The translations under genes were made by a program, and so were the position numbers. Below the pieces are notes generated by a model, which had not been told where the DNA came from, searched no databases, and saw nothing but the letters and a program-made list of their open reading frames with translations. Below, in pieces: positions 18,666 through 61,317 of a stretch of DNA of 64,000 nucleotides. The stretch is taken from positions 76,479 through 140,478 of the IMG/VR virus record IMGVR_UViG_3300027902_000006. One strand, written 5' to 3'. The DNA comes from a virus. Each line of letters opens with the position of its first letter. The stretch's first letter is position 1.

Positions 18666-19650
18666 TCAAGACCATAACGTGTTTAAAGTTCGGACCTGTA
18701 AACACACATCTGTCCTTTCCGACAACCACGTCATGAGTAAAGTTTAGAATCTGTTCTAAGTAAAACGGATTAATAAAGATTTTAAACTCCGGACCTGTGT
18801 AGTCCACATCTAGTTCTTCCTCTACCCAACCTAACTCCTTTTGCCCTCGACAAGTTATCTTGCCAGTAGAAAAGACTAACTCAACTTTAGTCTCAAACGA
18901 AACTTCAGTAACGGTCATTATACGACAACGTGCTAGTGCTTCTGTCATATCTGGAAGAGTGATTGTCGGGCCATCTACCATCGTATAACTCGCTATCTTT
19001 TCTTCGTCAAAAAACTCTTCTTCCATCTTCCGCACACTAAAAACCAAGCCTCCTGCCTTAAAATGAACCCAATTCTCATCAACAAGAAGATGCGTAGGAT
19101 CGTACTTTTTAAGTTTTGACAGACAAAACCCAGGCAGGAGAAAATCAAATGGACTAGGCTCTTGCAATATAATGTGAGTTACTCTATAGCCGTCTGAGCT
19201 TATTACAGAACGATCCTTAACATGAACGCATGTAAACTTAGGACGTGTCATATTTTTACTCACGGAGAATTCTGACATCTTAATGGCAGAGAACAGATCG
19301 GGTGAAAAAGATTGCCACTCACCTGAGACGCTAACCGGAGGATATGAAACCTCCAATATGGAAATTCCTGCTCTTACTTTTCCACAAGTCAAGCGGAACT
19401 CAGTTCCCTCTGTAAAGATTGTCACATCTTCACTAGGTAGTTTGGCAAGAATCTTTGTGAGTTCCTCTGCTCGCACTCCTCCGTCAACTCCCGACTCAAA
19501 CGGAATGGAAACAAAGATTCCATCATCAAATGTGACAATGTGATCGTTATGAAAGCGGAAACAGACATTCTGTTCAATGATATCTTTCTGTGCTAGTCCG
19601 GGTGAAAGTTTATTCAGTGTCTCTATCAGAGTCGATCTTTTTACATTCAT
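18655..19650 (-). CDS. dnaN: DNA polymerase sliding clamp (beta-clamp-like)
   Basis: 331 aa, SSDGYRV and FINPFYL patterns, near clamp loader and polymerase. Confidence 0.75.
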   Translation of the reverse strand: MNVKRSTLIETLNKLSPGLAQKDIIEQNVCFRFHNDHIVTFDDGIFVSIPFESGVDGGVRAEELTKILAKLPSEDVTIFTEGTEFRLTCGKVRAGISILEVSYPPVSVSGEWQSFSPDLFSAIKMSEFSVSKNMTRPKFTCVHVKDRSVISSDGYRVTHIILQEPSPFDFLLPGFCLSKLKKYDPTHLLVDENWVHFKAGGLVFSVRKMEEEFFDEEKIASYTMVDGPTITLPDMTEALARCRIMTVTEVSFETKVELVFSTGKITCRGQKELGWVEEELDVDYTGPEFKIFINPFYLEQILNFTHDVVVGKDRCVFTGPNFKHVMVLIDV

Positions 19651-20029
19651 CTGGAGTCTTTCTCCTCATTGTGATTTTAACTTTCGTTTTAGGTTCTAGT
19701 TCTATACTCCAATTGTAGTTAGAGTACCAATTCCCCCCCGTAGACCGCTCTACGGGTTGGTATGGTAAATGTGTTTCGTACATTCGAAATGTTGAAACCG
19801 GATCTGGAATCGGGGAGTAGGCCGATGGTAGTACCAGAGGTTCAGACGAACTCCCCGGCACTCCCCACGAATAGATACTAGTAGGGAATTCACGCCTAGA
19901 CCAAGGAAATTCGTCAAAGGTAAGTTCAGATTCTTCTACAGTTCGGACTTCAGACGTTTCTTCGGTAGAAAAGAACTTACATGCTTTAGTTTTTCCTTTC
20001 TTCACCGCCCTCTTTTTACGTCGACGCAT
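19610..20029 (-). CDS. hypothetical protein with KITMRRK tag
   Basis: ORF overlapping dnaN and dnaX; VKITMRRK near the C-terminus. Confidence 0.55.
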   Translation of the reverse strand: MRRRKKRAVKKGKTKACKFFSTEETSEVRTVEESELTFDEFPWSRREFPTSIYSWGVPGSSSEPLVLPSAYSPIPDPVSTFRMYETHLPYQPVERSTGGNWYSNYNWSIELEPKTKVKITMRRKTPDECKKIDSDRDTE

Positions 20030-20948
20030 GATGAGTTACTCCTTGGTAACAAGCAAGTGTCAGACCAACTTCTTTAGTATGAAAGAATGGTTCCGAGAAG
20101 CACTCAATTAAGATTGCCGCTTGTCGATTAGGATGTTCCAACAACACGGCCTGACAATAGCGTAGTACAGCCCACCTAATCGCTTCTGGGTCTTTTTCTT
20201 TAAGACGAGTGAGAATAGATGCTACATCTTTCCAATCTGCCTTGTCCAAAAGAGCTTTGAGTAATTCTCTTACTGTAGATTCTTGGGAAGAACTCTCGAT
20301 GGCTTCAAGCAACGCTCTTTCATCGAGAATGTCTACTACTTTATCCAAGATCACTAATGCTTCACGAGGTATCCCGTGACAGACGTCTTCCCTACTGATT
20401 TGTTCTATAGCCTTCTTGGGGAAATCAGACACGCTAGCTGCTTCCAGTACGCTATTGAGTAGTCTGCGTATTTCTCCGGCCTTTAGAGGCTTAACTTCGA
20501 ACCGTCTACACCGGGACAAGACTGTCCCAGGAAGTTTGTCTGGATTCGTAGTACATAGAATGAATACGACATGCTTAGGAGTAAATTCTAGAGCATCTAG
20601 GAGACAGTCCCAAAAGTCACCCGTGGCTCGTTGGCACTCATTGAGTAGATAGATTTTGATGGGACCACCCATCGGTCTAAGTCGCATGTTACTATCAAGT
20701 TCTCTAGCTTGGTCTATCCCCCGTGTATTGGAGATATTCAAGTGGTGGAAGTCTATTTCGGCACAACCCATCATGTCCTTAACGATGTATGCCAAGGTTG
20801 TCTTCCCACAACCCCTTGTTCCAGAGAAAAGCAAAACTCTAGGTGGGTCTTCTGATGTTAGATTAAGTTGCAGAATCTCTTTTAAAGAGTCGTTTCCGAA
20901 AAACTCTCTGAGCGTCTTGGGTCTAAAGTCGATATGAAGTGGACTCAT
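20016..20948 (-). CDS. dnaX: clamp loader AAA+ subunit (DnaX-like)
   Basis: FRPKTL..FFGN, GTRGCGKTT, FILCTT, SRC; Walker B reads LLNE instead of DE. Confidence 0.88.
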   Translation of the reverse strand: MSPLHIDFRPKTLREFFGNDSLKEILQLNLTSEDPPRVLLFSGTRGCGKTTLAYIVKDMMGCAEIDFHHLNISNTRGIDQARELDSNMRLRPMGGPIKIYLLNECQRATGDFWDCLLDALEFTPKHVVFILCTTNPDKLPGTVLSRCRRFEVKPLKAGEIRRLLNSVLEAASVSDFPKKAIEQISREDVCHGIPREALVILDKVVDILDERALLEAIESSSQESTVRELLKALLDKADWKDVASILTRLKEKDPEAIRWAVLRYCQAVLLEHPNRQAAILIECFSEPFFHTKEVGLTLACYQGVTHHAST

Positions 20949-21085
20949 TCTACTTCTCCATCATAACTTCTGGTAAATCATCCCGTCCGTAAGACTTGTA
21001 GCGCTGCGACCTAGCTCGATGTAGACAGTTCTCACAGAATTTAGTAAAGGTGGTTTTGGGTTCGTGACACCGAGCACACAAATTC

Positions 21086-21289
21086 TCATTTTGCTTTTTT
21101 GGCATCTCTTGTACTCCTTGGATGTTCCTTATTAGTACCATTGGCAAAATATTCCAATAGCCTTTCGTCTGTTTCGTTCTGTAAAAAGAAGTAGGACAGC
21201 AATCTGAACGGATATTGCGCTTCAGTTAACACATCACCTTGTGAATCCTCCTCTAACCAAGTGGCTGTGTAGATCTTTGTCATTTGCAA
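21086..21289 (-). CDS. small protein, possibly a detached N-terminal segment of the DpdA-like barrel
   Basis: KIYTA...RLLSYFFL pattern. Confidence 0.45.
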   Translation of the reverse strand: MQMTKIYTATWLEEDSQGDVLTEAQYPFRLLSYFFLQNETDERLLEYFANGTNKEHPRSTRDAKKAK

Positions 21290-21527
21290 CGCCCCCTTAA
21301 GTCCGAATAGCTATAACCAAGACTTCTCTATCTACACATCGCAGGTAGATAATGGTAACTGTTGAGTTCTTCAAAGGCTATACCGTGGGCCATAAGAAAG
21401 ATTTTAGCTTCCATCTCAGTGTTAAACACAAGGTAGTCAGAACTGTCGTCCTCCATCAGATACTCAAACGGATTCAAACAGACGCCCTCTTGGAACCTAG
21501 CCACAATGACTTCCATACATACCTCCC

Positions 21528-60100: not shown

Positions 60101-60311
60101 TCTTCTCACCTCCTTTATTCGGAATCGTCAAAATCGAAATAACGCTGCATGTCAAACAAGAGTTGTTGATCGTGTAATTGGAAGTAGCCACTCCTGTCAT
60201 ATGGACCGATTCGTCTCCAAACTCTTTCTAGGAGATCGCGAGCTTGTTTGAGATTTTCGATGTCGTCGATAATGTTATCTAACGTTGTTGGTTGCCAGTC
60301 CCGTCTAGGCA

Positions 60312-60689
60312 TTATGAACCTCCTTTGCGTGTCTGCGTTACTCTGATAGTTGTGGGGAGACTTTTGAGCATTGCGGTCCTTGTAGGTTCAGGTAGTGCGG
60401 ATATGAATAGCGTAACCGTCTCTTTTGTTCTAAATCTGACAGCGTCTCTATCCATTTCGTTTGCTATTTCTCCGTCTCTTAGGTCTCGTGCTTCCCAGTC
60501 ATCACAACCAGAGCAAGACCCATAACTCCATGAATAGTAGACATATGTCCCGTTATGATATGCAAGGAATCTAGCGTGGCCACTATAGTCGTCCTCTGAG
60601 TCTTCCCAGAGGATTGTCCACTTACCCCAAATTGTGCCTGCTACATATCCATAACGGCATCTCGCTGCTATTGTATCTTCCCACTTCAC
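60312..60689 (-). CDS. hypothetical protein with tag
   Basis: DDYSG..WSYGSCSGCD; IRVTQTRK. Confidence 0.65.
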   Translation of the reverse strand: MKWEDTIAARCRYGYVAGTIWGKWTILWEDSEDDYSGHARFLAYHNGTYVYYSWSYGSCSGCDDWEARDLRDGEIANEMDRDAVRFRTKETVTLFISALPEPTRTAMLKSLPTTIRVTQTRKGGS

Positions 60690-60691
60690 GA

Positions 60692-61027
60692 CTATTTCCT
60701 CCTTACCGTTATAGTCACCGGTGGTGAGATGTGCTTGAGGATTTGTATGGAGTCGGGGCTATCCAGTCGAAATAGCCACGCCTTGGCTCTTAAAAGAGTA
60801 GGAAAATGCAAAGAGTCGGAACAGTCGTCCCACTCGTCCCCGTCCTCGTTGTCTCCCCACCACCAGTCTGTAAACTGATACTGTTCGTCCTTTTTTAAGA
60901 AGACTTTAGCATAGCCCCCTTCCTCTGTACCCTCTACGCGTTCCCAGACGACTTCCCAGTCAGAGAACAGCTCAGAAGCTACGTCTCCAAGTGGTTGATC
61001 TATGGCCTTTGTGTCCACCCATCTCAT
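60692..61027 (-). CDS. hypothetical protein with tag, related to 60312-60689
   Basis: W.[IV][LV]WE..E....G.A; VTITVRRK then stop. Confidence 0.65.
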   Translation of the reverse strand: MRWVDTKAIDQPLGDVASELFSDWEVVWERVEGTEEGGYAKVFLKKDEQYQFTDWWWGDNEDGDEWDDCSDSLHFPTLLRAKAWLFRLDSPDSIQILKHISPPVTITVRRK

Positions 61028-61317
61028 ACTTTTCTCCGTTGTGTTATGGTGATAGTGGATTTTTTGAGTTCCTCCCTGAGGTGTACGAGAGCCGGAGTAT
61101 TGATTATCACCCTGAGTCGTCCATCTTCTCCTACTCTATAGTGCTTGGGTAGAATTTCATAGTTCAAAATGGGCTGATCGAAGTGGGTTTGTGGATATTC
61201 GCGTTTTATCCGATTTGCCACATCGGATATGTGGTTTGTCAGATGACAAGGTACTAGTATTTCCCCCGTCCTTCCGGGTTTAAGGACTATTTCATACTTC
61301 AGACTATTGTCTTCCAT
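61024..61317 (-). CDS. hypothetical protein with tag
   Basis: ITITQRRKV then stop; AGGAGG SD. Confidence 0.65.
   Translation of the reverse strand: MEDNSLKYEIVLKPGRTGEILVPCHLTNHISDVANRIKREYPQTHFDQPILNYEILPKHYRVGEDGRLRVIINTPALVHLREELKKSTITITQRRKV

Follow-up and report, generated by a model that had tools for sequence, protein, structure and literature searches.

A short C-terminal peptide tag shared by about 25 small proteins in the early region of a large phage, a candidate docking motif

The window analysed here comprises 64,000 nucleotides (nt) of a virus record in IMG/VR (IMGVR_UViG_3300027902_000006, positions 76,479 to 140,478), and forms the right-hand 64 kb of this 140,478-bp linear genome, which is 92% complete according to CheckV and has a G+C content of 43%. 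Almost every gene of the window is encoded on the minus strand. The annotated functions include a ribonucleotide reductase, a family-A DNA polymerase fused to a UDG-like domain (PolA-UDG), a DnaB-like helicase, an SNF2 helicase, a Toprim primase, a clamp loader (20016-20948) and a beta sliding clamp (18655-19650). In the same region, between 19.6 and 61.1 kb, 25 open reading frames (ORFs) of the minus strand carry at or close to their C-termini a common short peptide of the pattern [IVLM]-x-[IV]-[TS]-x-x-[RK]-[KR], referred to below as the tag. No close DNA relatives were found among phage records by megablast and blastn, and the closest match of the DNA polymerase is only 24% identical, indicating that no near phage has been sequenced.

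The consensus of the tag is P-[IV]-[KT]-I-T-[MQV]-[RK]-R-K, with the leading Pro present in 12 of the 25 copies. Ile occupies position 3 in 24 copies (Val in the other) and Thr position 4 in 24 (Ser in the other); Arg stands at position 7 in all 25, and Lys at position 8 in 23. The tag ends 0-15 residues before the stop codon in every case, nine copies being exactly terminal and the other 16 being followed by 1-15 non-conserved tail residues. The strict pattern [IVLM][KTRSIQ][IV][TS][MQVICL][RKTQIL][RK][KR] matched the minus strand of the window 23 times and the three plus-strand frames not at all. A single one of the 23 matches (15132-15155) belongs to an off-frame short ORF and 22 fall in called proteins, an off-frame control that speaks for the motif as it had been proposed in an earlier sequence-only reading of this DNA. 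Residue shuffling of the 140 called proteins (n = 1000) gave a mean of 0.059 strict matches (maximum 2) versus 22 observed, and the six-residue core was found 30 times versus 2.2 by shuffling. In the rest of the 140,478-bp genome no strict match was detected, and all matches are on the minus strand. The 25 sites consist of the strict matches together with three slightly deviant copies (FIITQRRK, TKITQRRK and QRITVTRK). All tag sites listed in the sequence-only reading were recovered at the ORFs named there, as were the two internal copies it had noticed in g45620 and g26946, which together with copies in g46348 and g56666 make up the degenerate or internal ones (Table 1); the start of ORF 34023, first placed at 34406, most likely lies at 34295.

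The tag is conserved as a peptide. Pairwise differences per site at codon positions 1, 2 and 3 were 0.27, 0.27 and 0.65 within the tag versus 0.72, 0.69 and 0.74 in the eight codons upstream of it, showing that the third positions of the tag are near saturation while the first two are held. Most third positions carry about 0-0.6 bits of information, and 64% of the identical tag residues are written by different codons: Arg at position 7 is encoded by AGA, AGG, CGC, CGT and CGA, and Thr at position 4 by all four ACN codons. Position 1 interchanges Ile, Val, Leu and Met, and amino-acid identity amounts to 62% within the tag versus 9% just upstream. A position weight matrix derived from the tag sites was run over both strands of the genome and returned no copy above 14 bits that was out of frame or intergenic, with the caveat that the training sites had been found via the peptide; a nucleotide signal should still have given some copies in other frames. 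The variable third positions and the lack of such copies speak against a nucleotide-level initiation or junction signal. Selection acts on the tag peptide and not on a DNA repeat, in line with the earlier proposal, for which the nearly randomised third positions, the switches between codon families and the matrix result all speak.

The tags lie close to the following genes. The next start codon is found 2-30 nt past the tag in 23 of the 25 cases, and an AAGGAG-type Shine-Dalgarno sequence of the next gene lies inside the tag in seven cases, across its end in eight and after it in eight, with none nearby in the remaining two. These positions agree with the earlier observation that some RRK codons double as the AGGAG of the next gene and that the CGT and CGC cases do not. 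The basic residues are kept where they are coded by CGC, CGT or CGA and the Shine-Dalgarno sequence sits further on, and the whole tag is kept in two ORFs lacking a nearby downstream start, g54332 (followed by a hairpin and a T-run) and g30828. Untagged protein ends displayed neither an enrichment of Ile and Thr nor a depletion of G at the matching distance from the next start. The Shine-Dalgarno overlap appears to account for part of RRK, not for I-x-I-T. The median distance from stop to start was -1 nt at tagged and +2.5 nt at untagged junctions, with overlaps of at least 8 nt in 20% and 21%, respectively, and because these distances are alike, the closeness of the tag to the next start is a matter of dense gene packing rather than of special coupling. 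Long tails, which reach 15 residues, run into the next gene and lack conservation except where the other frame encodes the N-terminus of the clamp; they look like read-through after the loss of an older stop codon. An effect of the nascent peptide at termination was rejected, since anywhere from 0 to 15 codons separate the tag from the stop.

The proteins bearing the tag are diverse and small. About 12 carriers share a small SH3-like barrel pattern opening with K-V-G-D-x-V. The AlphaFold2 model of one of them, g29603, is a five-strand barrel with a mean predicted local distance difference test (pLDDT) score of 84, whose best Foldseek matches were the Mib-HERC2/CPH domain, the Pif1 SH3 domain, YorP, Tudor and KOW, at weak E-values from 2e-3. 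The carrier g43578 was assigned to DUF7296 (Pfam E-value 3.8e-27). Two others, g34023 and g34297, each have two hydrophobic segments and a basic tail, and an Atlas search placed one carrier with two transmembrane segments among small viral and bacterial membrane proteins, which is taken as a lead only. Further distinct bodies are found in g61024, g60692/g60312, g54332, g30151, g30828 and g19610; in total, no fewer than six or seven architectures bear the tag, 158 residues being the length of the largest clear carrier. With the tags stripped, BLAST joined the carrier bodies into only four groups (29603/29867/55276/57858, 60312/60692, 54627/59312 and 34023/34297). The carriers had been described as unrelated, which holds insofar as several architectures are represented and is overstated insofar as about half of them are SH3-like barrels and four small paralogue groups exist. 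None of the annotated enzymes carries the tag, PolA-UDG, the clamp loader, the DnaB-like helicase, the primase and the SNF2 helicase all being without it, so that the sequence-only reading was right for the annotated proteins checked in seeing no tag on core replication or metabolic enzymes.

Structural models of two carriers, g29603 and g43578, were obtained with AlphaFold2. In g29603, the strands of the barrel occupy residues 10-65, and the tag at residues 70-78 is predicted without secondary structure, with pLDDT falling from about 73 to 59. In g43578, the DUF7296 domain reaches a pLDDT of 84-98 up to about residue 111, followed by a flexible tagged tail at 56-61. The other 119 listed DUF7296 homologues end soon after a conserved H-Y-L-D-G, and none of these 119 matches the tag pattern. 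Likewise, the barrel of the g29867 family in Pseudomonas phage UAVern runs into a different C-terminal region without the tag. The models and comparisons argue for the tag as a predicted exposed appendage that is not part of the fold. Its location outside both the barrel and the DUF7296 domain and its presence on carriers with two transmembrane segments and on other carriers speak against its being the last strand of one common fold.

The tag is kept in related phages, both on orthologues and on further proteins. The 2.8-kb contig L011 (JGI 3300042991) encodes a DUF7296 protein 56% identical to that of the present genome, and three consecutive ORFs of L011 end in VQVTQMRKRRNK, VSITQARKKRKHPC and ITVTQIRKRRVTCPSP, in which the tag copies read VQVTQMRKRR.., VSITQARKKRK.. 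and ITVTQIRKRR... One of these three ORFs is the orthologue of g61024, with 29% identity and the tags aligned. Position 6 is hydrophobic in all three L011 copies. The DUF7296 protein of L011 ends only in P-D-K-R-R-K. In a second relative, L012 (JGI 3300010413), the clamp is 55% identical by alignment, and the ORF between the clamp loader and the clamp has 197 residues versus 139 for g19610; only the last 26 residues of the two align, consisting of an 11-residue tag block and a 15-residue tail. This counterpart of g19610 keeps K-V-K-V-T-M-R-R-K with synonymous changes at Val and Thr, and the stretch ATG-AGG-AGA-AAG, which serves as the ribosome-binding site of the clamp gene, is identical in both phages. 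The invariant core over both lineages is [IV]-T-x-x-R-K.

Wider searches gave little more. The closest clamp relative as a Logan contig (P0124, 51% identity) has the same gene order, and an IMG/VR relative by SNF2 helicase (L001, 43% identity) has no tag. In IMG/VR, the DNA pattern of IKITMRRK gave nine chance matches and the clamp alignment gave nothing. The same DNA pattern was found at no fewer than 118 loci of metagenome contigs (that is, at least 118), and among the matches listed none lay in a long near-stop ORF with other tags and none was related to this genome. GTDB genomes yielded no match to the clamp alignment, and protein searches with g29603 and the g61400 family returned only this genome and L011.

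Table 1. Tag sites and tag-like copies in the window (aa, amino acids)
Tag	Position	Strand	ORF	Remarks
ITITQRRK	61030-61053	-	g61024 (61024-61317, 97 aa)	tag kept in L011 orthologue
VTITVRRK	60695-60718	-	g60692 (111 aa)	exactly terminal; paralogue of g60312
IRVTQTRK	60324-60347	-	g60312 (125 aa)	
IKITMRRK	59315-59338	-	g59312 (96 aa)	exactly terminal; SH3-like; Arg CGC; Shine-Dalgarno after tag
ISITILRK	58867-58890	-	g58864 (72 aa)	exactly terminal; SH3-like
LKITVRRK	57861-57884	-	g57858 (70 aa)	exactly terminal; SH3-like; Shine-Dalgarno inside tag
QRITVTRK	56970-56993	-	g56949 (74 aa)	SH3-like
LKITVTRK	55763-55786	-	g55754 (67 aa)	SH3-like
IKITVRRK	55539-55562	-	g55521 (76 aa)	SH3-like
IKITQKRK	55303-55326	-	g55276 (84 aa)	SH3-like
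ITISQKRK	54636-54659	-	g54627 (158 aa)	probably tandem barrel; sole Ser at position 4
ITITMRRK	54335-54358	-	g54332 (97 aa)	exactly terminal; hairpin and T-run downstream, no start codon nearby
VKITMRRK	47512-47535	-	g47509 (81 aa)	exactly terminal
IKITVKRK	47282-47305	-	g47267 (76 aa)	
MKITCTRK	46887-46910	-	g46866 (80 aa)	
ITITITRK	43975-43998	-	g43939 (121 aa)	
IQITQQRR	43587-43610	-	g43578 (128 aa)	DUF7296 domain, residues 1-109
FIITQRRK	40404-40427	-	g40389 (88 aa)	SH3-like
IKITQRRK	34300-34323	-	g34297	exactly terminal; two hydrophobic segments, then basic tail of ~30 aa
TKITQRRK	34026-34049	-	g34023 (34023-34295, 90 aa)	exactly terminal; two hydrophobic segments
IKITQIRK	30855-30878	-	g30828 (107 aa)	next start 71 nt off
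VTITMKRR	30163-30186	-	g30151 (86 aa)	
IKITMRRK	29897-29920	-	g29867 (95 aa)	SH3-like
IKITMRRK	29633-29656	-	g29603 (87 aa)	SH3-like
VKITMRRK	19658-19681	-	g19610 (139 aa)	between clamp loader and beta-clamp genes
ITRTILQRRK	45908-45937	-	g45620 (45620-46144)	internal, tag-like (residues 70-79); SH3-like barrel, tag, then 95 more residues
QTITIKKR	46366-46389	-	g46348 (172 aa)	degenerate, 5 residues before stop
	27186-27209		g26946	degenerate or internal copy
	56669-56692		g56666	degenerate or internal copy

Several further features of the window were noted. The fusion-like ORF g45620, with its barrel, tag-like sequence and 95 additional residues, suggests that a stop codon was lost between two genes. 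Two untagged ORFs of the minus strand, 59092-59301 and 57175-57888, end with P-P-F-Q-I-I-E-G-F and P-I-F-R-V-I-K-G-F right before the stop, which may be a second, rarer C-terminal motif. TAG is the stop codon of 7/25 tagged ORFs, and ARAGORN predicted a tRNA with the anticodon CTA (reading TAG; labelled Pyl) at 961-1036 (minus strand), adjoining a tRNA-Gly(GCC); late amber suppression or recoding of TAG could lengthen some of the tagged ORFs. The order of clamp loader, fast-evolving tagged ORF, beta clamp and PolA-UDG (18655-20948 of the window, minus strand; 207-2680 of L012) is conserved in relatives. The tagged ORF in the middle, g19610, overlaps the start of the clamp gene by 41 nt and might encode an accessory subunit of the clamp loader.

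Two untagged proteins were noted in connection with L011. An ORF of 77 residues starting with M-I-G-I-E-L-K (61400-61633 of the window, minus strand; 1775-2002 of L011) encodes the best conserved small protein between both phages (51% identity) and is located directly upstream of the tagged gene run in each of them; this g61400 family has two members only among 5.8 billion proteins searched. L011 also encodes, at 538-972 (plus strand) and immediately upstream of the DUF7296 gene, a 144-residue protein with an H-C-x-x-G-x-x-R-S motif, which we take to be a Cys-phosphatase signature. No homologue of this protein was found in the present genome by tblastn.

Elsewhere in the window, a full 7-deazaguanine set (FolE, QueF-like, QueC, radical-SAM QueE and QueD) adjoins a ParB_N-domain protein at 23608-28629 (minus strand) and, together with the UDG-fused polymerase, points to modified DNA. 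The 3' end of ORF 6582-8840 (ribonucleotide reductase) includes a predicted tRNA-Thr(TGT) at 6665-6739 (minus strand), located between the parts for the TSCPD domain and the Cys-rich end. Amid the tagged genes, at 47862-51601 (minus strand), an Amidoligase_2 protein of 641 residues is encoded between two proteins of about 300 residues that begin with M-C-[IV]-I-I. One of these neighbours (47862-48773) gave a weak class-II amidotransferase match, and this match together with the M-C start is what an Ntn-type reading of both flanking proteins is based on. A connection of the tag with the amidoligase and the two Ntn-type amidotransferase-like genes, by analogy with peptide ligation, was dropped, as many phages have such clusters without tags.

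The tag peptide is under purifying selection, lies outside the folded domains, is missing from homologues of two carrier families in other phages and is kept in relatives. A short, exposed peptide preserved on many different small proteins has the anatomy of a short linear motif. The reading we favour is that the tag may be a portable short linear docking motif read by one common protein partner, for which a probability of roughly 0.45 seems appropriate. The tag would then consist of an amphipathic strand of five residues (hydrophobic-x-[IV]-[TS]-uncharged), usually with a Pro cap, and of the basic cluster behind it with Arg 7 and Lys 8, presumably presented on a flexible cytoplasmic C-terminal tail. 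In this lineage it would have been appended to about one quarter of the small early-region proteins, whatever their fold, and a single partner from phage or host could bind it as a common handle. An alternating hydrophobic strand with a Pro cap and a trailing charge is of the type that pairs with the edge of a sheet or lies in a groove, as is the case for PxIxIT, SUMO-interacting and clamp-binding peptides. The strand of the tag would probably pair with an exposed sheet edge or groove in a similar manner, its basic residues resting on an acidic patch, and the tagged proteins might in this way share their recruitment, localisation or turnover. A broader form of this proposal holds that one phage or host reader of P-[IV]-x-I-T-x-x-R-K acts on about one quarter of the early proteins collectively, for example through recruitment to the replication machinery or phage DNA or through scheduled removal, and that this is an instance of a wider, undescribed habit of large phages; we regard it as tentative and, in its full breadth, rather doubtful.

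Several observations weigh against a docking motif. The SH3-like half of the carriers could stem from one tagged ancestor, and for this reason the word portable rests on the other dozen carriers. The last three residues of the tag coincide with the Shine-Dalgarno sequence of the next gene in 15/25 cases, and untagged proteins of the region are likewise rich in Lys, Arg and Glu at their ends, so that the basic cluster in part reflects the ribosome-binding site and part of the motif has a nucleotide-level cause. The relatives bearing the tag number two (L011 and L012), both fragmentary, and a distant relative with a 40% identical clamp (L014) has neither the ORF between clamp loader and clamp nor the tag in 7 kb. 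No reader of the tag was found. Finally, the tag allows tails of 1-15 residues and one internal position, which shows that it is not a classical C-terminal signal with a free carboxylate.

The basic tail with its short strand could act as an electrostatic tether to a polyanion and keep the small proteins attached to DNA of the phage or the host, to RNA or ribosomes, or to the inner side of the membrane. Such a tether would agree with the almost invariant Arg 7 and Lys 8, with the lengthened basic runs of the relatives (RKRR and RKKRK), with the many SH3-like carriers, whose fold is shared with the KOW, Tudor, ribosomal and Pif1 nucleic-acid-binding modules, and with g34297, in which the tag closes an already basic cytoplasmic stretch after two transmembrane segments. 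Pure electrostatics, however, would need neither the near-invariant [IV]-[TS] nor the alternating hydrophobic residues nor the preceding Pro, and the K/R-rich ends of untagged proteins do without I-x-I-T, which leaves the tether unlikely. Processing or modification of the tag is a quite unlikely explanation, in which the Thr or Ser before the basic residues would be phosphorylated, glycosylated or otherwise modified, or dibasic cleavage would trim the tail. No family hit for a protein kinase or a Clp protease was obtained in the genome, and the search for a PPP-type phosphatase yielded only two Metallophos hits, which resemble an Mre11-type nuclease and the small subunit of a polymerase. The hydroxyl residue is constant at position 4, and Thr is found there in all four copies of the relatives, but beta strands favour Thr anyway; the non-conserved tails on 16 tags could be removed by processing, yet the long ones overlap the next gene and look accidental. 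The presumed Cys-phosphatase signature in the protein adjoining the DUF7296 gene of L011 would fit a modified residue.

The closeness of most tags to the next start, the Shine-Dalgarno sequences inside or across 15 of them, the single fold in about half of the carriers and the identical ribosome-binding stretch in g19610 and its L012 counterpart could all be left by a functionless relic, that is, one ancestral gene end spread by duplication and recombination at gene junctions and held in place by the initiation region of the next gene. This is improbable in view of third codon positions near saturation next to kept first and second ones, the switching Arg codon families and the interchange of Ile, Val, Leu and Met, and it would leave the absence of out-of-frame or intergenic matrix copies unexplained; untagged junctions lack the G depletion and Ile/Thr enrichment at the same distance, their stop-to-start distances resemble those of tagged ones, and the tag persists where no start follows. 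Very improbable is a pairing of tags with each other or with the barrels, which would give mixed oligomers or a condensate with no separate hub. The I-x-I-T-hydrophobic strand between Pro and RRK may be prone to pairing, with Pro and the basic residues resembling gatekeepers; chromo- and Tudor-type barrels complete their sheets with bound peptides, and the commonest carrier is a barrel. In the AlphaFold2 model of g29603, on the other hand, the tag forms no strand, and the like basic charge on all copies should oppose pairing between tags.

A docking motif read by one partner would matter beyond this genome. No pool of genes of unknown function is larger than that of the small early proteins of phages, which are usually studied singly, and a tag common to about 25 of them would offer a single experimental handle on the reader, the place and the time of action for about one quarter of the early proteome. 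A host machine as reader would make the tag a ready-made targeting peptide, and if lineage-specific tags are common in large phages, they would form an unrecognised layer of organisation in phage infection.

Shared docking peptides are in themselves a known principle, with clamp-binding tails, the acidic tails of T7, the capsid targeting sequence of T4 and degrons as examples. Literature searches on the motif strings returned no paper, and general searches on shared C-terminal motifs and amidoligase systems returned nothing relevant. Where the defining features of the known systems compared here are testable, the tag has none of them. The capsid targeting sequence of T4 (IPI-III, Alt) is likewise a short peptide common to several unrelated phage proteins, which it addresses to one destination, but it is N-terminal, cleaved off by the prohead protease and found on proteins that are packaged into the head, while the tag is C-terminal and its carriers, which include membrane proteins, are encoded among replication genes in the minus-strand replication and early block, the first 76 kb of the genome being free of strict matches. 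C-motif 2 of ClpX substrates (RRKKAI of MuA) and C-terminal degrons are basic C-terminal peptides read by a host machine, and a signal of this kind could time the turnover of early proteins; they need a free C-terminus, however, in contrast to the 16/25 tags followed by 1-15 residues and the one internal copy, and they have no counterpart of I-x-I-T.

Calcineurin-binding PxIxIT and SUMO-interacting motifs resemble P-[IV]-x-I-T of the tag in having a short strand of alternating Ile/Val with Thr or flanking charge. The tag differs from PxIxIT in being one residue shorter between Pro and the first Ile, in its additional basic cluster and in having Pro in only 12/25 copies. Clamp-binding peptides (QL[SD]LF, PIP boxes and the tails of T4 gp43, gp33 and gp55 on gp45) are, like the tag, short and usually located at the protein end, and they let many proteins dock on one hub, as is proposed for the tag; this phage encodes a beta clamp and a clamp loader with the tagged g19610 between them. 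Unlike them, the tag lacks a Gln-x-x-hydrophobic-x-x-aromatic pattern (aromatic residues are scarce over the C-terminal 14 residues of tagged proteins, at 0.3% Phe, 0.5% Tyr and 0% Trp), the DNA polymerase (ending ISLDKILLENY) and the clamp loader are untagged, and the carriers include membrane proteins. Complex prediction for the beta-clamp dimer with a tagged tail of 35 residues (alignments of 76 and 28 rows, respectively) gave a score of 0.00 in a run without controls, which speaks neither for nor against binding. Being a known peptide hub with a tagged gene beside its own, the phage clamp was the most concrete candidate for the reader of the tag, a candidacy weakened by the dissimilar motif and the untagged polymerase.

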